DNA from: Moorena sp. SIO3H5
GTDB taxonomy: Bacteria; Cyanobacteriota; Cyanobacteriia; Cyanobacteriales; Coleofasciculaceae
Direction: 5' to 3'
NCBI RefSeq assembly: GCF_010692395.1
Contig: NZ_JAAHHS010000122.1
Coordinates: forward strand, 1-18,964
DNA length: 18,964 bases
Positions 81 through 8,316 of the stretch are shown in pieces. Position numbers and translations under genes: made by a program. The notes beneath the pieces were generated by a model. The model searched no databases, was not told the DNA's origin, and saw nothing but the letters and a program-made list of their open reading frames with translations. How positions within the stretch are numbered: the first letter of the stretch is position 1; the number at the start of each line of letters is the position of its first letter.

Positions 81-551
81 ATGGAACTAGTAACACTCTC
101 AGCAACAGCGATCACTACTCTGGCTTTCAAGAAGTTTCTAGAAACTGGCGCTGGGGAATTGGGCAAAAAGTTTACTGAAACAGCCATCACCAAGATGGAC
201 GAACTCCGTAACATGATCTGGGAAAAGTTACGGGGTAATTCTAAAGCTGAAAAAGCTCTGACAGCAGTTGAACAAGGATCTAACCAGGAATTAGACCGAC
301 TGGCTGTGTATGTGCAGGATGCGATGGAAGATGATCAGCAGTTTGCTTCGGAAATTAAGGCGATCGCTCAAGAAATCCATGCTGGCAAGATACAGGACAA
401 CAGCAGCAACATTATGAATGTTAATGACAAGGCTAAAGGTATACAAAACAATATTGAAAATATTGCTAAAGGTGTACAAAACATTGACACTATTAAGGGT
501 GATCACAATTATGTTGCTCAAGAGATGCACATTCATCAGGGGTCTGATTAG
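81..551 (+). CDS. 156-aa helical module with a hydrophobic N-terminal helix and an N/Q/G/I-rich tail. It is probably the original N-terminal domain of the downstream NB-ARC/TPR NTPase.
   Basis: ATG at 81, TAG at 549-551. It shares the reading frame of ORF 708..3104, and this TAG is the only stop between 81 and 3104. The sequence starts MELVTLSATAITTLAFKKFLETGAGELGKKF, continues with amphipathic helices (KAEKALTAVEQ...DDQQFASEIKAIAQEI), and ends in a tail with two 11-aa pseudo-repeats. Confidence 0.6.
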   Translation: MELVTLSATAITTLAFKKFLETGAGELGKKFTETAITKMDELRNMIWEKLRGNSKAEKALTAVEQGSNQELDRLAVYVQDAMEDDQQFASEIKAIAQEIHAGKIQDNSSNIMNVNDKAKGIQNNIENIAKGVQNIDTIKGDHNYVAQEMHIHQGSD

Positions 552-707
552 CTGAAGTCGTCCGACCGGGAACGGACAACGTTAAATCCCCCCAGTAACA
601 TTATCAATCGAGGCACTCCCTACTTTGTCGGTAGGGACCCTCAACTTGAGCAGCTCCATCAGGAATTTGAACAGACCGATCAATTAGCCATTTGTGCCAT
701 TGCCGGA

Positions 708-3104
708 ATGGGCGGTGTGGGCAAAACTGAGTTAGCTCTACAATATGCTCTGAAAAATCAGGATAATTACCCTGGTGGGTTGTGCTGGTTCCAAGTGCGA
801 GGGTTGGATCTCGGGACTCAAGTTGTCAATTTTGCCCGTACTAAATTAGGATTAACCATTCCAGATCAACTAGAGTTCAACCAACAAGTAGAATACTGCT
901 GGGGGCATTGGCCAGAAGGAACAGCATTGATCGTGCTGGATGATGTGCCTTCTTTCAGCAACGACTACAAACAAAGAATTCAGCCCTACTTACCTCCAGC
1001 CCAATCCCGCTTCAAAGTACTGGTCACCAGCCGTCAGCGTCCAGGGGCTTCTTACCGACGAATTGATTTGGATGTGCTATCCCCAGAGGCAGCATTAGAA
1101 TTATTGGAATCCCTTGTTGGAAAAGAGCGCATTGAGCAAGAACTAAATGAAGCACAAGCGTTATGTGAATGGTTGGGTTATTTGCCCTTAGGTTTGGAGT
1201 TAGTCGGACGATATTTAGATATACATCCAAGTTTAACTATCGCTAAAGTTCAGAAACGTTTAGAGAAAAAGAAATTAGCAGCTAGGGCATTACTTGACCC
1301 AACAGAACAAGGGGAGATCACAGCCCAGTTGGGAGTAGCAGCAGCCTTTGAGTTATCCTGGGAAGATTTGAAAGAGTCTCCAGAAGCCCAACAGTTGGGA
1401 TGTCGTTTGAGTCTGTTTGCTCAAGCTCCTTTTGATTGGTCACTGGTAGAGTCTTGTGTTATCGAAACTGACGATGAGGATGACTGGGAAGAAGAACAAG
1501 AAGACTTGGAAGAATTACGCGATCGCTATCTGGTCAATCGTAATCTCTTACAACTGACCGAACAGCAAACCTATCGACTCCATCAACTAATTCGAGAATT
1601 TTTCCTGACCAAGCTGGCTCAATTACCAGAGGCCGATAGCTACAAGGAAAGCTTTTGTAAGACAATGGTGGCTGTAGCAAAAAAAATTCCCGATACACCA
1701 ACTCAAGAAATTATTGCAGCAGTTAGCCCTGCCATCCCTCATTTAGTCAAAGCTGCCACAGTCCTAACTGACTGGCTCAGGGATGAAGATTTACCATGGC
1801 CCTTCACTGGCTTAGGAAGATTCTATAACGGTCAAGGTACCTATGACCAGGCTGAACTGTGCTCGAAGCAATGTTTAGAGATAACTAGAACCCGCTTCGG
1901 TGACGACCATCCCCATGTGGCCATCAGTCTCAACAACCTGGCATTACTCTACGACTCAATGGGGTCCTATGACCAGGCCGAACCCCTCTATCAACAGGCA
2001 TTGGAGCTGTTTAAGCAGCGGCTGGGTCACCACCATCCTTTGGTGGCCACCAGTCTCAACAACCTGGGTTTACTCTACAACTCAATGGGGCACTATGATG
2101 AGGCCGAACCCCTCTATCAAAAGGCATTGGAGCTGTTTAAGCAGCGGCTGAGTCACCACCATCCCGATGTGGCCACCAGTCTCAACAACCTGGCTGGACT
2201 CTACTTCTCAATGGGGCGCTATGACCAGGCCGAACCCCTCTTACAACAGGCATTGGAGCTGTTTAAGCAGCTGCTGGGTCACGACCATCCTTTGGTGGCC
2301 ACCAGTCTCAACAACCTGGCATTACTCTACTCCTCAATGGGGCGCTATGACCAGGCCGAACCCCTCTTACAACAGGCATTGGAGCTGTTTAAGCAGCTTC
2401 TGGGTAAAGACCATCCCGATGTAGCCACCAGTCTCAACAACCTGGCAGATCTCTACTCCTCAATGGGGCGCTATGATGAGGCCGAACCCTTCTTACAACA
2501 GGCTTTGGAGATGAGAAAGCAGCTGCTGGGTGACAACCATCCCGATGTGGCCACCAGTCTCAACAACCTGGCATATCTCTACAACTTAATGGGGCGCTAT
2601 GACCAGGCCGAACCCCTCTTACAACAGGCTTTGGAGATCAGAAAGCAGCGGCTGGGTCAAGACCATCCCCATGTGGCCACCAGTCTCAACAACCTGGCTA
2701 CACTCTACTCCTCAATGGGGCGCTATGATGAGGCCGAACCCTTCTTACAACAGGCTTTGGAGATCAGAAAGCAGCTGCTGGGTGACAACCATCCCGATGT
2801 GGCCACCAGTCTCAACAACCTGGGTTTACTCTACCAGTCAATGGGGCGCTATGACCAGGCCGAACCCCTCTTACAACAGGCATTGGAGCTGTTTAAGCAG
2901 CGGCTGGGTCACCACCATCCCGATGTGGCCATCAGTCTCAACAACCTGGCATATCTCTACTCCTCAATGGGGCGCTATGACCAGGCTGAACCCCTCTATC
3001 AACAGGCTTTGGAGATTGCAGAACAGAAGTTAGGGTCAAATCATCCTGACACTGTAAACATCCGTAAGAATCTAGAAAGTTTGCGCAATGATTTGTCACA
3101 GTAA
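708..3104 (+). CDS. NB-ARC (STAND/NLR-like) P-loop NTPase with a C-terminal TPR array. The only canonical start codon lies inside the Walker A motif, and the homologous frame continues upstream to 552.
   Basis: Walker A GMGGVGKT (705-728), Walker B LIVLDDV (927-947), VLVTSRQ, LGYLPLGLELVGRYL (GLPL-type motif) and YRLHQLIREF (MHD-like). These are followed by 9 x 42-aa units of the form DHPxVAxSLNNLAxLYxSMGRYDQAEPLxQQALE. Sense codons upstream read ...NRGTPYFVGRDPQLEQLHQEFEQTDQLAICAIAG directly before MGGVGKT. Confidence 0.9.
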   Translation: MGGVGKTELALQYALKNQDNYPGGLCWFQVRGLDLGTQVVNFARTKLGLTIPDQLEFNQQVEYCWGHWPEGTALIVLDDVPSFSNDYKQRIQPYLPPAQSRFKVLVTSRQRPGASYRRIDLDVLSPEAALELLESLVGKERIEQELNEAQALCEWLGYLPLGLELVGRYLDIHPSLTIAKVQKRLEKKKLAARALLDPTEQGEITAQLGVAAAFELSWEDLKESPEAQQLGCRLSLFAQAPFDWSLVESCVIETDDEDDWEEEQEDLEELRDRYLVNRNLLQLTEQQTYRLHQLIREFFLTKLAQLPEADSYKESFCKTMVAVAKKIPDTPTQEIIAAVSPAIPHLVKAATVLTDWLRDEDLPWPFTGLGRFYNGQGTYDQAELCSKQCLEITRTRFGDDHPHVAISLNNLALLYDSMGSYDQAEPLYQQALELFKQRLGHHHPLVATSLNNLGLLYNSMGHYDEAEPLYQKALELFKQRLSHHHPDVATSLNNLAGLYFSMGRYDQAEPLLQQALELFKQLLGHDHPLVATSLNNLALLYSSMGRYDQAEPLLQQALELFKQLLGKDHPDVATSLNNLADLYSSMGRYDEAEPFLQQALEMRKQLLGDNHPDVATSLNNLAYLYNLMGRYDQAEPLLQQALEIRKQRLGQDHPHVATSLNNLATLYSSMGRYDEAEPFLQQALEIRKQLLGDNHPDVATSLNNLGLLYQSMGRYDQAEPLLQQALELFKQRLGHHHPDVAISLNNLAYLYSSMGRYDQAEPLYQQALEIAEQKLGSNHPDTVNIRKNLESLRNDLSQ
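1905..3038 (+). repeat. Nine tandem 126-bp (42-codon) TPR-encoding repeats with very high nucleotide identity
   Basis: Units start at 1905, 2031, 2157, 2283, 2409, 2535, 2661, 2787 and 2913. Stretches longer than 60 bp recur exactly, for example atggggcgctatgaccaggccgaacccctcttacaacaggcattggagctgtttaagcag at about 2211, 2337 and 2841. Confidence 0.95.
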
Positions 3105-3172: not shown

Positions 3173-4093
3173 ATGACTTACGATAGTACCCTAAAATATT
3201 TGGTTGAACAATATCCTCAAGCCTTTACCCGTTGGTTATTTAACCAAGAACCAGCAGAGGATATCGAAATTCTCAACACCGAATTGAGCACAGAACCAAT
3301 TCGGGCAGATGCCTTATTTTTTGTGCGAGTTGCTGATGCTATTTTGCATCTGGAATTTCAAACCCTACCCCAATCTGAACCTCCCTTACCCCTGCGGATG
3401 CTCGATTATTGGGTCAGGTTATATCGCCAGTATCGCTGTGATATTGAACAAGTAATAATTTTTCTGAAACCAAGCCGATTAGCGGGAGTATTTGTAAATC
3501 AATTTACCGAGAGGAACTTATCCTTCCGCTATCGGGTGATTCGGATTTGGGAATGTGATCCACAACCATTACTAACAACACCGGGGTTACTACCCTTGGC
3601 AGTATTAGCACAAACTGAAGTGCCAGAAACCTTGCTATCCCAAGTAGCAGCCAGAATCGATATGATTGAAGATAGACAACAGCAGCGTAACCTATCTGCT
3701 TGCGTGCAACTGTTGGCTGGGGTGAAATTTGATGAACAGTTAATTCAAGCTTATTTTCGGGAGGATATGATGCAGGAGTCAGTAGTTTATCAACGAATTA
3801 TTCGCCAAGGATTAGAACAAGGATTAGAACAAGGATTAGAACAGGGATTAAAACAAGGATTAAAACAAGGATTAGAACAAGGATTAGGACAGGGATTAGA
3901 ACAAGGAAAGCGCAATGAGCTTAATTTAATTATCCGTCAAATTAACCGTCGTCTAGGTCAGATAAATCCCCAATTACTTAATCAAATTGAGCAGTTATCC
4001 TTTTCCCAGTTGGAGGATTTAGGAGAAGCGTTGTTAGATTTTGAAACCGAAGTGGATTTGAGCAATTGGTTGAACCAGTTTAGGGATAAGTAA
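3173..4093 (+). CDS. Rpn-family recombination-promoting nuclease / putative transposase (PD-(D/E)xK core with a DUF4351-like C-terminus)
   Basis: The N-terminal core ...EPIRADALFFVRVADAILHLEFQT... has the D...E-x-Q nuclease-type motif. The tail ...LIIRQINRRLGQINPQLLNQIEQLSFSQLEDLGEALLDF... matches the DUF4351 tails I remember from cyanobacterial Rpn/YhgA-like proteins. Confidence 0.8.
   Translation: MTYDSTLKYLVEQYPQAFTRWLFNQEPAEDIEILNTELSTEPIRADALFFVRVADAILHLEFQTLPQSEPPLPLRMLDYWVRLYRQYRCDIEQVIIFLKPSRLAGVFVNQFTERNLSFRYRVIRIWECDPQPLLTTPGLLPLAVLAQTEVPETLLSQVAARIDMIEDRQQQRNLSACVQLLAGVKFDEQLIQAYFREDMMQESVVYQRIIRQGLEQGLEQGLEQGLKQGLKQGLEQGLGQGLEQGKRNELNLIIRQINRRLGQINPQLLNQIEQLSFSQLEDLGEALLDFETEVDLSNWLNQFRDK
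3806..3907 (+). repeat. In-frame 12-bp microsatellite (caaggattagaa, about 8.5 copies) encoding (QGLE/QGLK)n inside the Rpn-family CDS
   Basis: Units run from 3806 to 3907 with only A/G variants. They translate to QGLEQGLEQGLEQGLKQGLKQGLEQGLGQGLEQG. Confidence 0.95.
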
Positions 4094-5197: not shown

Positions 5198-5406
5198 GAC
5201 TATTTTTCCTCAGTAAAATTTTCAAGTAAGCATTAGCTGATAGCTTAAAAATGTACTTATCTATTTCAACGTGATGGCTGATTTTTATTGCCAAGGGTAT
5301 TTTATCTGTAAATCCAGCAAGCTTTAGAACATTTAAAAAAAATTCATTAAACTCTGAATTATGTAAATGTTTAGCAAAGGAAATCGGAACTTCGGAGCAA
5401 GAAACT

Positions 5407-5895
5407 ATGCTTAATTTAAAAATAGACTACACTCACCTGAAGACTTTATTGATGAAAGTGAAGTGGAAAGCTGCTGATGCGGAAACCAATAAAATTGTAT
5501 TATCCATAGCTAAAACCCTTAGACAACAGCAGAAGGTTAGTAAAAAAGACCAAGAATGGCTTCAAGGGTTGAATTATCTCATAGAATCAGACTTAAGAGA
5601 GTTTCCCTGTGAGGATTTGCTAACACTAAATCAGCTTTGGGAGCAGTATAGTCAAGGTCATTTTGGATTTAGAATACAATCTCAACTGTGGCAGCAAGTT
5701 AGTCAAGATTATAATCAATTCGCCGATCTAGTAGGATGGCGCAAGGGTGATGCCGATTCTTGGCATTCTTATGCTCAGTTAACCTTTAGTTTAGACGCTC
5801 CTAAAGGTCATTTGCCCGCTGCGATATTTTATGCCGAAGAATCCCCTATTGGTTGGGCGGCAACTATTAAAAATAGATTGGATGAATGTTTTTGA
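5407..5895 (+). CDS. GUN4-domain protein
   Basis: FPCEDLLTLNQLWEQYSQGHFGFRIQSQLW...VGWRKGD...LTFSLDAPKGHLPA matches the GUN4 porphyrin-binding domain signature as I recall it. The exact start codon is uncertain. Confidence 0.75.
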   Translation: MLNLKIDYTHLKTLLMKVKWKAADAETNKIVLSIAKTLRQQQKVSKKDQEWLQGLNYLIESDLREFPCEDLLTLNQLWEQYSQGHFGFRIQSQLWQQVSQDYNQFADLVGWRKGDADSWHSYAQLTFSLDAPKGHLPAAIFYAEESPIGWAATIKNRLDECF

Positions 5896-5931
5896 TGGTA
5901 TAAACTATACTAAAACATTCAATTTGTTCCC

Positions 5932-7239: not shown

Positions 7240-7542
7240 TTACTGCTTTAACTTTTGCTGAACCAAGGACGGTGTTTTTTCTTGCATATCACGGGCAAAT
7301 TCTTCATCTTCAAGAATCTGTTGCCTGATTTCCTCAAAATGGTCATGATAATAGGCTAAAGCAGCATAGACATCTGCTAAGGTAATGGTAGGGTATTGTG
7401 AAACAATTTCATCCGGCGACAATCCTATTCTTTCGTGCCAAATGACAATATCTTCAACCCGAATACGATGACCGGCAATGCGAGGTTTGCCACCACAAAC
7501 CCCTGGTGTAATTTCAATATGCTTTGATATGACACTACTCAT
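7240..7542 (-). CDS. DUF433 domain protein (antitoxin-like, HTH)
   Basis: ITPGVCGGKPRIAGHRIRVEDIVIWHERIGLSPDEIVSQYPTITLADVYAALAYY is the characteristic DUF433 core. Confidence 0.8.
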   Translation of the reverse strand: MSSVISKHIEITPGVCGGKPRIAGHRIRVEDIVIWHERIGLSPDEIVSQYPTITLADVYAALAYYHDHFEEIRQQILEDEEFARDMQEKTPSLVQQKLKQ

Positions 7543-7598
7543 GTTGTCTCCTATTTATACACTGGTTTTACCATTATATCTCACAATAATATCTAAAT

Positions 7599-8204
7599 TC
7601 AACTGGATGCAAAAATCTGGTTAGCAGTTAAACTAAGCTCCGGAAAGACTTTGGAAACAAGACCATCATCATTTCGGAACAATTGTTTTTGATACTCATC
7701 ATCTACCAAAGTGCAAATTGTAATTGTTGGTTGTTTAGGTTTACCAATATAATCTCTACCACCAATGCCTAGATAATCGACAATCCAGTATTCAGGTACA
7801 CCTAGTATGGCATAATCTTCAACCTTACGAGCATAATCGTTCTGCCAATTGGTGCTAACAACTTCAACAACAAGCTTGATTGAGGTTCCCAACGTAATCA
7901 CAGGCTCTTTTTGCCATAAAGGTTCATTTACTAGCCGAGTTCTATCTAATACAATCACATCAGGACGAAAAGCTGTTTGAGTTCCTAAAATTTTGATCAG
8001 ACATCGGTAGGGAATCAGATAATCTGGGTATCCTCGGTCAATCTCCACATTTAACTTCCGTCCCACAAACCCTGCTACTTCCTCATCAGGTCCAGTAGCT
8101 TCCATGTCAATTAGTTCCCCATCGATTAGTTCATAGCATTCGTTGTCACCATACTGGGTAATAAACTGATCAACAGTTATAAAAGTTGGTAAAGCTTGAA
8201 GCAT
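7599..8204 (-). CDS. Uma2-family (DUF820) PD-(D/E)xK endonuclease
   Basis: YELIDGELIDMEATG...FRPDVIVLDR...LVVEVVS...DYARKVEDYAILGVPEYWIVD matches the Uma2 pattern. I prefer the ATG at 8204 (MLQALPTF...) over 8264 because an AAGGAG sits 10 nt upstream of it (8215-8220, minus strand). Confidence 0.85.
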   Translation of the reverse strand: MLQALPTFITVDQFITQYGDNECYELIDGELIDMEATGPDEEVAGFVGRKLNVEIDRGYPDYLIPYRCLIKILGTQTAFRPDVIVLDRTRLVNEPLWQKEPVITLGTSIKLVVEVVSTNWQNDYARKVEDYAILGVPEYWIVDYLGIGGRDYIGKPKQPTITICTLVDDEYQKQLFRNDDGLVSKVFPELSLTANQIFASS

Positions 8205-8316
8205 TACAATCGCACTCCTTATCAGGATAAAATCATGCTGGTAGTGGTAAGCTGCTATTATCAATACTTAAATCTTAACGGTCAATCGTGTTAGATAAAA
8301 AATATAATGAATCAAA

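Follow-up and report, generated by a model that had tools for sequence, protein, structure and literature searches.

The window analysed here comprises 18,964 nucleotides of a contig from the cyanobacterium Moorena sp. SIO3H5. At 81-3104 it holds a gene for a small putative effector, directly followed by the coding region of an NLR with NB-ARC and TPR parts (Table 1). The effector ORF starts with ATG 81 and its product has 156 aa. A sequence check showed that ORF 81..551 and ORF 708..3104 share one frame, that this frame of 1008 codons contains a single internal stop, and that codons 552-707 are in frame, stop-free and translate to LKSSDRERTTLNPPSNIINRGTPYFVGRDPQLEQLHQEFEQTDQLAICAIAG, directly followed by MGGVGKT at 708. 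Scanning these 52 codons revealed no in-frame ATG, GTG or TTG. A start of its own for the NLR upstream of the nucleotide-binding domain was not found: the first ATG, GTG or TTG past 551 is ATG 708 (codon 52), within the Walker A motif GMGGVGKT. The initial annotation had described precisely this single frame with one TAG and an open, start-free 552-707, as well as a sole canonical start inside the P-loop, and is confirmed here.

Its view that the NB-ARC/TPR part, an NLR-like STAND NTPase, is intact also stands. Pfam family PF00931 matches residues 31-242 of the translation from 552 (E = 2.5e-14, 53.6 bits against a cut-off of 23.5), the Walker A motif is complete, and TPR_12 (E = 6.4e-187) and TPR_10 matches cover 9-10 units. 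The TPR repeats are near-identical at the DNA level, with a period of 126 nt, 8.9 copies and 87% matches over 1899-3014 according to Tandem Repeats Finder. Comparison of the NLR part with PADLOC 2.0 gave matches limited to generic TPR and candidate (PDC) models. Cyanobacterial genomes and metagenomes yielded 64 distinct junctions with the same arrangement; judged from sequence, such stop-split sharing of a frame is far beyond chance.

Table 1. Features of the effector-NLR locus, with positions in the window
Feature	Position	Strand	Details
N-module, helical part	81..398	+	residues 1-106; Bell-type putative membrane-targeting cell-death domain
N-module tail	399..548	+	residues 107-156; disordered, N/Q/G-rich; divergent BASS9 motif
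Conserved in-frame stop	549..551	+	TAG here, TGA in most relatives; C at 552
Post-stop codons	552..707	+	52 codons: linker LKSSDRERTTLNPP and pre-P-loop NB-ARC part (FVGRDPQLEQL...AICAIAG)
Spacer, stop to pseudoknot	552..559	+	8 nt, CTGAAGTC; consensus CTNNAGTC
Stem 1 hairpin	560..577	+	GTCCG (560-564) pairs with CGGAC (573-577); loop 565-572 ACCGGGAA
Stem 2	568..590	+	loop bases GGGA (568-571) pair with TCCC (587-590)
Loop 3	578..586	+	A-rich, AACGTTAAA, crosses stem 1
NB-ARC domain	642..1277	+	Pfam PF00931; Walker A GMGGVGKT 705-728
TPR sensor array	1899..3104	+	about 9 units of 42 aa; TAA at 3102-3104 ends the ORF

The effector module and its tail

The N-terminal module (N-module) begins with MELVTLSATAITTLAF, which provides a hydrophobic helix 1 and an acidic residue at position 2. 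Both are marks of Bell-domain effectors, short proteins (about 120-140 aa; here 156 aa) whose first helix is hydrophobic and whose second or third residue is acidic; their fold is a helical bundle with helix 1 cupped by four others. The family consensus begins MEPVTLTAxAIATLAF, comparable to the 'MEPIS' motif of Bell/HeLL/Avast2. All of the 61 close homologues are stand-alone proteins, of 102-156 aa. The family tail consensus QDNSxMTQNNYDNARGWQTKVEGGTAYIGEIHIH corresponds to bass_09 as listed by Dyrka et al. (2020, Table S2), with motif MTQNNYDNARGWQTKVEGGTAYI of the family consensus agreeing with the bass_09 rows. In the window the tail, NDKAKGIQNNIENIAKGVQNIDTIKGDHNYVAQ, is a BASS9 motif that has diverged and is duplicated in part.

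An AlphaFold2 model based on a 54-sequence alignment has helices at 8-20, 27-30, 33-50, 54-64, 68-84 and 86-101 with a pLDDT of about 90, and a tail with pLDDT < 50. The model is all-helical over residues 8-101. A structural counterpart was not obtained: Foldseek gave no significant match in the PDB (best E = 1.5). Sequence searches gave no match in Pfam or PADLOC, and a sequence profile search of the PDB returned nothing relevant. Based on the Bell-like N-terminus and the BASS9 family tail, the N-module is a putative Bell-type cell-death domain from a family that carries a BASS9 amyloid-signalling tail. This agrees with the earlier proposal of a Bell/HeLo-type effector domain and supplies the named family that had not been recognised.

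Conservation and context of the stop codon

Stop identity across the 64 junctions, which share ancestry and are not phylogenetically independent, is TGA in 55, TAG in seven, TAA in two and TGG in none, although TGG was permitted at the stop position in both junction searches. The base at +4 is C in 58 of these 64 related junctions and the stop is TGA or TAG in 62, the latter compared with a background of 60%. Among 377 long ORFs of the same loci, 31% end with TGA, 41% with TAA and 18% have C at +4. The codon following the stop is CTA, CTG, CTC, CCG or CCA. Known leaky termination contexts include C at +4 and UGA-CUA (PMC7026636). By sequence context, the junction stops are weak or leaky: UGA or UAG followed by C, with UAA nearly absent. 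No Shine-Dalgarno-like conservation was seen in the 12 nt preceding the stop.

The stop is found across cyanobacterial orders and in many genera, and three Moorena relatives (L001, L149 and L150) have an identical stop and pseudoknot. A fresh nonsense mutation, very recent decay or a consensus error had been suggested initially, and a recent mutation, a pseudogene or a sequencing or assembly error in this contig would fit a 1008-codon frame that is otherwise intact. Since the stop is conserved across orders and interchanges between TGA, TAG and TAA without ever becoming a sense codon in the 64 junctions, these explanations are ruled out for practical purposes; that all 61 close homologues end here points the same way, and the remaining chance of an accident is negligible.

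A conserved pseudoknot downstream of the stop

Eight bases past the stop lies a conserved H-type pseudoknot (560-590), predicted from aligned sequences and supported by covariation, which we consider real. The spacer measures 8 nt in all cases. Two alignments were used, A2, which is unguided, and A4, registered by hand with five indel classes. On A4, 97.4% of the cells of stem 1 are paired with double compensatory changes in two of five pairs, and 96.7% of those of stem 2 with such changes in all four pairs. Stem 2 is short (4-6 bp) and occurs as GGCA/TGCC, GGTA/TACC, CCGGA/TCCGG, GGGAGC/GCTCCC and GCGA/TCGC. The whole pseudoknot has 97.1% of A4 cells paired vs 79.8 +/- 1.2 in shuffles, and 50 compensatory cells vs 9.4 +/- 2.7, with double changes in six of nine pairs; slid controls on A4 were 33-56% paired. 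On A2 the values were 79% vs 71% of cells paired and 22 vs 8 compensatory cells. Stem 1 was predicted independently by RNAalifold and holds on the unguided MAFFT alignment.

Conservation extends beyond pairing needs at several spacer and loop-3 positions, and C16, T17 and C23 are kept in at least 90% of the rows of A2. Hits of a covariance model for the pseudoknot were confined to such stops, with 41 in 713 kb and 59 in 408 kb. Folding of the single sequence, by software that cannot model pseudoknots, was no better than that of shuffles (z = -0.07). Rfam 15 contained no matching family, cmscan of window positions 400-800 at E <= 10 giving two chance matches (a snoRNA and a lncRNA). No T run was found after the pseudoknot, which is therefore not an intrinsic terminator. 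The pseudoknot takes up about 31 nt, or about 45 nt with the stop included.

Coding signature downstream of the stop

In 57 of the 64 junctions frame 0 runs without a stop for 48 codons or more, or as far as the contig ends; the two other frames contain a mean of 2.2 and 3.2 stops in that span. The seven short downstream frames are pseudogenes or assembly errors. Among relatives, the stretch from the pseudoknot to the first start differs at 538/339/698 sites by codon position, an excess at the third position, with a pooled dN/dS of 0.41. Codons 1-15 after the stop have no such periodicity (208/184/206). In 32 of 44 loci the conserved NTPase motif [FW]xGR comes before the first canonical start. 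In 10 of the 44 a TTG or GTG occurs 17-25 codons past the stop and before the GR motif, which makes independent initiation conceivable there. These signatures indicate that frame 0 downstream of the stop is translated, ahead of any canonical start.

Relatives with and without the pseudoknot

In relatives that lack the pseudoknot, effector and NLR form a normal two-gene pair: the NLR carries a separate start and, at its N-terminus, a second copy of the tail motif. Loci with the pseudoknot have neither, and in the window no copy was found in the 24 residues LKSSDRERTTLNPPSNIINRGTPY between stop and FVGR motif. Since the tail motif is duplicated on the NLR where the pseudoknot is missing, read-through would be functionally necessary here. 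The possibility of orthologues forming two genes with a proper start, raised initially, holds for the stop, which the orthologues possess, and fails for the start, which they lack too. Neither the pseudoknot at 560-590 nor the duplication of the tail motif on the NLRs of pseudoknot-less relatives had been part of that first description.

Protein P0084 is a stop-free Bell-BASS9-NB-ARC-TPR protein and at locus L085 GAG occupies the position of the stop; as far as sequences can tell, an effector-NLR fusion protein is viable. Locus L035 continues in frame past TGA-C and its pseudoknot is degenerate. The junction of stop and pseudoknot is also found downstream of other Bell families, of a TIR domain (L110) and of alpha/beta-hydrolase-like domains (L128, L123), and it sits ahead of NB-ARC or NACHT NTPases. 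By this distribution it is modular.

Proposed read-through mechanism

The reading that we favour, with a probability of roughly 0.65, is that programmed read-through yields plenty of free effector and a small amount of effector-NLR fusion to nucleate it. Read-through had been one of several options listed initially, and the conserved stop context, the pseudoknot and the frame-0 coding signature now speak for it. Positions 81-3104 would then be transcribed and translated as one unit that contains a programmed leaky stop, at which the majority of ribosomes would end the 156-aa Bell-type effector with its BASS9-family tail, and a minority would probably pass to produce a 1007-aa Bell-BASS-NB-ARC-TPR protein. 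Weak stop type and context, the conserved 8-nt spacer and the compact H-type pseudoknot may each favour read-through, the pseudoknot being presumably placed at the mRNA entry channel when the stop codon occupies the A site. The combination of stop and pseudoknot resembles a read-through signal of the retroviral type. We are not aware of any earlier case in which a pseudoknot stimulates read-through on bacterial ribosomes, and this step accordingly rests on analogy.

By analogy with HET-S/NWD2 and bacterial Bell/BASS-NLR pairs, detection of a trigger by the TPR array would lead to oligomerisation of the NB-ARC domains, the gathered tail motifs of the fusion proteins would form an amyloid seed, and this seed would convert the abundant free effector, whose Bell domain could then damage the membrane. 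The leaky stop would thus replace the second, NLR-side motif copy of ordinary two-gene pairs and fix the ratio at many effectors per sensor, comparable to the pseudoknot of murine leukaemia virus (MuLV) and the Gag:Gag-Pol ratio.

Rather unlikely in our estimate is a version in which the pseudoknot acts as a regulated switch instead of at a fixed rate, with fusion synthesis, and with it the arming of amyloid-driven death, induced at the decoding of the stop. Pseudoknot stability, or the competition of release factor and tRNA at UGA-C, might then respond to a signal such as infection, translational stress, temperature or a small ligand, and the junction would be a portable one, common to Bell, TIR and hydrolase effectors and to NB-ARC and NACHT sensors.

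Alternative explanations

Two separate proteins could be made without any fusion if the pseudoknot retained or recruited ribosomes, which would resume without a start near the next codon and produce an NLR from about LKSS... onwards. The loci are bicistronic in every annotation, pseudoknots are able to hold ribosomes, resumption at the very next codon would make the shared frame automatic, and a TTG or GTG precedes the GR motif in the ten loci mentioned. This explanation is nevertheless unlikely. The post-stop codon is no conserved near-cognate start, CTA and CCN differing from AUG at two positions, the Shine-Dalgarno-like conservation is missing, and the weakest stop context and the avoidance of UAA would be left unexplained. 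The NLR would also lack a tail motif for signalling to the effector, which every pseudoknot-less relative possesses. To our knowledge no bacterial mechanism exists for resuming translation without a start codon. Quite improbable, too, is a chiefly regulatory pseudoknot (a ligand-, protein- or temperature-responsive element, an RNase site or an attenuator) acting on NLR output, with read-through incidental or absent. Small riboswitch pseudoknots such as preQ1-I are similar in size and layout to the 5-bp stem, 8-nt loop and A-rich 3' strand found here, and conservation of spacer and loop-3 positions beyond pairing would suit such an element. Against it stand the missing Rfam match at E <= 10 and the missing T run, as well as the open frame 0 from the stop and the coding evolution before any start, neither of which regulation requires.

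It is very improbable that the stop is a selenocysteine or pyrrolysine codon and the hairpin a SECIS- or PYLIS-like element. As in bacterial SECIS elements, an in-frame UGA (TGA being the commonest stop, 55/64) has a conserved structure no more than about 10 nt downstream, still within the coding sequence. Unlike there, the stop varies: the window and six other junctions have TAG and two have TAA, and each of them carries this element. The structure is a pseudoknot, Rfam gives no SECIS match, and the site is a poorly conserved linker and not a redox site or catalytic Sec context. No tRNA gene lies within the window.

Comparison with known systems and implications

Reportedly, Ibarlosa et al. 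described in 2024 Bab/Agp, a Bell-domain/BASS pair next to an NLR. Filamentous bacteria have Bell/BASS gene pairs beside NLRs, according to Dyrka et al. (2020, bioRxiv 10.1101/2020.01.06.895854), whose study makes no mention of stop codons or read-through. The locus in the window shares with such pairs a protein of about 140 aa with hydrophobic helix 1, helical bundle and C-terminal N/Q/G-rich motif, encoded, in multicellular cyanobacteria, immediately before a collinear NB-ARC/TPR NLR. Published pairs have abutting or overlapping ORFs and an NLR equipped with a start codon and an N-terminal motif copy; the NLR in the window lacks both, and a single frame is divided there by the conserved stop with its RNA pseudoknot. 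All-in-one Bell-NLR proteins such as P0084 have the domain order Bell, BASS9, NB-ARC, TPR of the predicted read-through product; their genes are without stop and without pseudoknot-encoded linker, which makes a free effector pool impossible.

The bipartite MuLV gag-pol signal (Wills 1991 and Feng 1992, cited in PMC7026636 and PMC13517186) consists of UAG, an 8-nt spacer and an H-type pseudoknot. It has in common with the junctions a leaky stop, a sequence-conserved 8-nt spacer, a compact H-type pseudoknot and a downstream ORF in the same frame, and gives much of a short product and little of a fusion, the outcome predicted here. That signal is eukaryotic and viral, used by 80S ribosomes with eRF1, and its pseudoknot has about 60 nt, while the present candidate element has about 31 nt, mostly follows UGA-C and belongs to genes on bacterial chromosomes. 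Context-only UGA read-through in bacteria is exemplified by Q-beta coat/A1 (3-5%) and cases in B. subtilis (PMC13517186). The proposed mechanism shares with these near-cognate decoding in a weak context, leading to a minor extended protein of distinct function. We know of no dedicated downstream RNA structure and no conserved chromosomal gene families among such context-only cases.

No report of structure-linked stop read-through in bacterial chromosomal genes was found in Rfam 15, 7.7 million PMC papers or bioRxiv. If confirmed, read-through here would be, within the literature searched, the first conserved case of programmed stop read-through linked to a structure in such genes, and a small 3' pseudoknot could steer bacterial ribosomes as retroviral signals steer eukaryotic ones. 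It would also add a third NLR-to-effector architecture beside 'all-in-one' proteins and two-gene amyloid pairs, in which one gene supplies seed and substrate and would thereby ensure a perfect motif match and a stoichiometry set by decoding. The switch version, if true, would amount to a natural bacterial device for conditional read-through. Being compact (about 45 nt), the element is easy to test and could be used as a part to tune protein ratios in bacteria. Searches for amyloid motifs on the NLR side would miss the whole pseudoknot class, and dozens of cyanobacterial NLR genes now annotated from internal starts would be affected. Some pipelines render the TGA as Trp, as in P0184.

Data sets and alignments

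The genome set comprised 79 loci out of one-genome-per-species cyanobacterial assemblies; metagenomes were scanned with a pattern independent of the N-module, the product of the ORF that ends at the in-frame stop (61 matches, ~52 of them genuine). Taken together, the two sources yielded 64 distinct junctions, i.e. in-frame stops with the adjoining spacer and RNA element, and TGG was permitted at the stop position in both searches. Junctions were aligned without guidance by MAFFT (A2) and by means of a first covariance model (A3); the covariance model rests on stem 1. Since A3 and MAFFT shift the loop-9 class by one base, an N-padded alignment of 38 loci was registered by hand (A4), with five indel classes and the padding confined to loops.

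One frame, one stop

The initial annotation had described the locus as one frame with one stop, in which the NB-ARC/TPR part (hereafter NLR) finds a start only inside its Walker A motif, and this proved accurate upon re-inspection of the sequence. The 52 codons that follow the stop keep the frame of ORF 81..551 and contain neither a stop nor an ATG, GTG or TTG, and the first canonical start would open the NLR within Walker A. The translation of 552-3101 scores 53.6 bits for NB-ARC (cut-off 23.5) and continues with 9-10 TPR_10/12 units (Pfam). The TPR-coding DNA is a tandem array of 8.9 copies of 126 nt with 87% identity (1899-3014, plus strand) and is likely a site prone to assembly collapse. 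Strong internal repeat conservation is reported for fast-diversifying NLR sensor arrays.

Features of the locus in the window, and modules found on either side of the junction in other loci
Feature	Position or locus	Strand	Remark
N-module ORF	ATG 81 to TAG 549-551	+	156 aa
Open stretch	552-707	+	translation LKSSDRERTTLNPPSNIINRGTPYFVGRDPQLEQLHQEFEQTDQLAICAIAG, then MGGVGKT directly at 708
Stem 1 (predicted)	560-564 with 573-577	+	
Stem 2 (predicted)	568-571 with 587-590	+	
Loop 3 (predicted)	578-586	+	
Upstream module: several different Bell families			some with BASS5-like tails (KLADKIV..)
Upstream module: TIR_2 domain protein	L110		E = 3.8e-16
Upstream module: alpha/beta-hydrolase-like proteins	L128, L123		matches under Pfam cut-offs
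Downstream module: NB-ARC/TPR			
Downstream module: NB-ARC + APAF1_C helical domain			
Downstream module: NACHT	L142, L023, L030		

Identity of the N-module

AlphaFold2 models the N-module as a confident helical bundle (residues 8-101) with a disordered tail (107-156). Searches of Pfam and PADLOC gave no matches, a sequence-profile search of the PDB nothing relevant, and comparison of the model with the PDB by Foldseek insignificant helical-bundle matches (best E = 1.5); matches to NRG1 CC-R and BAX, with E of at least 6, were discounted as evidence. The N-module is like Bell, a putative cell-death domain (Dyrka et al. 2020), in its size, hydrophobic first helix and acidic second residue; its family consensus starts with MEPVTLTA, which recalls the N-terminal 'MEPIS' motif of Bell, HeLL and Avast2. 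The tail consensus of the family, MTQNNYDNARGWQTKVEGGTAYI, is the published bacterial amyloid-signalling motif BASS9 (Table S2, Dyrka et al. 2020), of which the N-module in the window carries a divergent, partly duplicated version.

Conservation and context of the stop

A search of 5.8 billion proteins identified 61 N-module homologues, all of 102-156 aa and none fused to another domain. A same-frame NB-ARC/TPR gene lies next downstream in Moorena producens, three Richelia sinica records and two further Moorena isolates; for P0007, a second paralogue from Moorena sp. SIO3H5, no locus was on record when looked up. Among the 79 genome loci, ~37 distinct ones have an open frame of 430-1270 codons directly after the stop, with the P-loop 49-62 codons and the first canonical start 18-62 codons past it.

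The stop is TGA in 55, TAG in 7 and TAA in 2 of the 64 junctions, with TGG in none; the +4 base is C in 58 and the next codon CTN in 57. The background, determined with 377 long ORFs of the same loci, is TGA 31%, TAA 41%, +4 C 18% and stop+CT 5%. Stop-codon context has described effects on termination strength (PMC7026636), and the comparison with background therefore points to the weakest stop placed in the weakest known context and to avoidance of the strongest stop. The -1 base is T in 50/64 junctions (window 537-551; A2 column 12), giving U-UGA-CU. This is similar to the core (CUU-UGA-C) of the frameshift site in prfB, although here the downstream frame is 0 and not +1. At one locus (L124, 4637-4706, minus strand) a second in-frame stop stands one codon on (TGA CTG TAG) and the pseudoknot is intact; at a Dapis sp. 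locus (L035, 5412-5481) TGA-C and the common frame are kept and the pseudoknot is degenerate, stem 1 pairing at 2/5 positions.

The RNA element

Placed side by side, the junctions show nucleotide conservation beyond what the encoded peptide accounts for. An 8-nt spacer (CTNNAGTC) precedes a 5-bp stem with an 8-11-nt loop, of which 4-6 bases form pairs 8-11 nt 3' of the stem, over an A-rich linker (AAAGTTAAA); judged from these pairings the stop-proximal element is a predicted H-type pseudoknot. Compensatory variants occur in stem 1 (GTCCG/CGGAC, GCCCG/CGGGC, GTCAG/CTGAC, GCCTG/CAGGC, GTCTG/CAGAC) as well as in stem 2 (GGGA/TCCC, GGCA/TGCC, GGTA/TACC, CCGGA/TCCGG, GGGAGC/GCTCCC, GCGA/TCGC), and the encoded residues vary so that pairing holds (SSDRERT, SPERERA, SSDSAPD, SPVPVQA).

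On A4, 97.1% of the cells are paired versus 79.8 +/- 1.2 in shuffles, and 50 cells are compensatory versus 9.4 +/- 2.7, with double changes in 6/9 pairs; slid controls are 33-56% paired. The unguided A2 gives weaker values than A4 that lie above every shuffle (79% vs 71% paired, 22 vs 8 compensatory cells), and RNAalifold independently recovers stem 1. The covariance model has 41 matches in 713 kb of genome loci, each at the stop that closes an effector-type ORF upstream, and 59 in 408 kb of metagenome loci, with none among chance pattern matches. The RNA element is almost certainly real. A scan of the junction with Rfam 15 gave no matching family. The single-sequence MFE fold of 549-596 is not above shuffles (z = -0.07), and the alternative nested fold that it proposes was rejected as lacking support in the alignment.

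Coding after the stop

In 57/64 junctions frame 0 meets no stop for at least 48 codons or until the contig ends, the same span holding on average 2.2 stops in frame +1 and 3.2 in frame +2. In the stretch from the pseudoknot's end (codon 16) up to the first canonical start, differences among related loci are distributed 538/339/698 by codon position with a pooled dN/dS of 0.41; the median dN/dS of codons 16-50 is 0.32. Differences in codons 1-15, corresponding to the pseudoknot, are flat (208/184/206), as expected if the constraint there is RNA pairing rather than peptide. The [FW]xGR motif with which the NTPase domain begins is found at codon 24-28, ahead of the first canonical start in 32/44 loci. 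These computations show frame 0 to be coding right from the stop.

The Trp at the stop position of protein record P0184 (L084, 488-1648) was rejected as evidence for an inserted residue: the DNA carries TGA, hence the W is an artefact of the public gene call. Family 'fusions' in databases can thus be gene-calling artefacts and need a check at the DNA level.

Modularity and distribution

The predicted domains on either side indicate that the junction is modular (see table). All element-bearing genome records are cyanobacterial, ranging from Pseudanabaena to Nostocales, with loci of this kind in, for instance, Moorena producens, Scytonema hofmanni UTEX 2349 and Fischerella PCC 9431; viral contigs scanned with the element pattern gave no matches. 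Three contigs carry two junctions a few kb apart (L087, 3992-4061 and 9636-9705; L097, 6318-6387 and 10396-10464; L145, 5174-5243 and 8101-8170), which suggests tandem arrays or islands of effector-NLR units. In L030, where a NACHT-type NTPase lies downstream, two copies of the tail-motif region (NEGGTNFVGGNHYHGNPP) in different frames precede the stop and pseudoknot (5200-5900); they reflect local duplication or else an artefact of assembly.

Two-gene pairs and fusions

Pseudoknot-free relatives are canonical two-gene pairs: the NLR has its own start near the stop, and its N-terminus bears a copy of the tail motif. L060 is an example, with an effector ending ...NQDNAKGWQTKVEGGTVYQGEINIH and an NLR starting MNQSNQDNAKGWQNKVEGGIVYQGDISIY; L006, L008, L033, L034, L036, L037, L039, L046, L047, L063 and L064 are alike. 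At pseudoknot loci the NLR side has neither start nor tail motif. According to the published Bell/BASS model, the effector-side motif is seeded by the NLR-side motif (Dyrka et al. 2020); with the NLR side devoid of the motif, read-through would be the sole way to put it N-terminal of the NTPase.

P0084, verified on DNA, is a stop-free fusion with the domain order that read-through would give, and in metagenome locus L085 GAG stands where the stop would be; an unbroken polypeptide across the junction is therefore tolerated. All 64 NLR junctions retain the stop, suggesting a need for both products or for keeping the fusion rare. P0084 lies in an island (L148, 46-5874) with a PNP_UDP+TIR protein, a TIR protein and another pair, a 150-aa gene and an NB-ARC gene in common frame with 6 nt between them; the covariance model found no pseudoknot at this locus. 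The L085 protein (P0074, 3001-4182) combines a Bell N-module, a TM segment and a GUN4 domain and passes through the pseudoknot-encoded linker, hence GUN4-like domains may be another partner of the junction. A stand-alone GUN4-like protein (PF05419, E = 3e-33) is encoded in the window at 5407-5895 (plus strand), 2.3 kb 3' of the NLR.

Proposed read-through and its alternatives

We infer, with a probability of about 0.65, programmed ribosomal read-through. Ribosomes would pass the stop at a fixed low rate; with the stop in the A site, the 8-nt spacer would bring the pseudoknot to the entry channel for mRNA. Two products would arise: free Bell-BASS effector and, in small amounts, a Bell-BASS-NB-ARC-TPR sensor, which would seed the effector once activated. 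Frameshift stimulators have the same pseudoknot-at-entry-channel geometry. The same arrangement of spacer and pseudoknot is seen in the MuLV gag-pol signal (PMC7026636, PMC13517186).

Resumption or non-canonical initiation, yielding two separate proteins, is an unlikely alternative. Somewhat less likely still is a mainly regulatory RNA. Insertion of Sec or Pyl at the stop is very improbable; the window contains no tRNA genes. Frameshifting and hopping were rejected, since the downstream domain is in frame 0 and the junctions offer neither a slippery heptamer nor a matching pair of take-off and landing codons; CTA directly follows the TGA stop in 26/64 junctions, where the +1 frame stops at once (GAC TAG). 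The fresh or very recent nonsense mutation considered in the initial annotation has to be dropped, with 61/61 homologues unfused and the stop kept at 64/64 distinct junctions, and such a mutation or a sequencing error now has a negligible chance of being the explanation.

As to the novelty of the arrangement, Bell/BASS-NLR pairs and NB-ARC/TPR proteins are already known, as is pseudoknot-dependent read-through in retroviruses. No stop and pseudoknot junction in bacterial NLR loci is described in Rfam 15, the Bell/BASS paper (Dyrka et al. 2020) or the full-text literature searched, from which most subscription journals are absent. Bacterial or NLR read-through pseudoknots were not found in the literature searched, and a paper surveying prokaryotic genes for in-frame stops mentions neither cyanobacteria nor pseudoknots nor these genes.

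Other genes in the window

Directly 3' of the NLR gene, 3173-4093 (plus strand) encodes a protein of 306 aa that has a DUF4351 domain at its C-terminus (E = 3.8e-21) and, internally, a series of tetrapeptide repeats (GLEQ/GLKQ). Neighbouring DUF433 (E = 7e-22) and Uma2 putative endonuclease (E = 9e-28) genes are located at 7240-8264 on the minus strand; both families are frequent in cyanobacteria, and the two genes appear unrelated to the junction.
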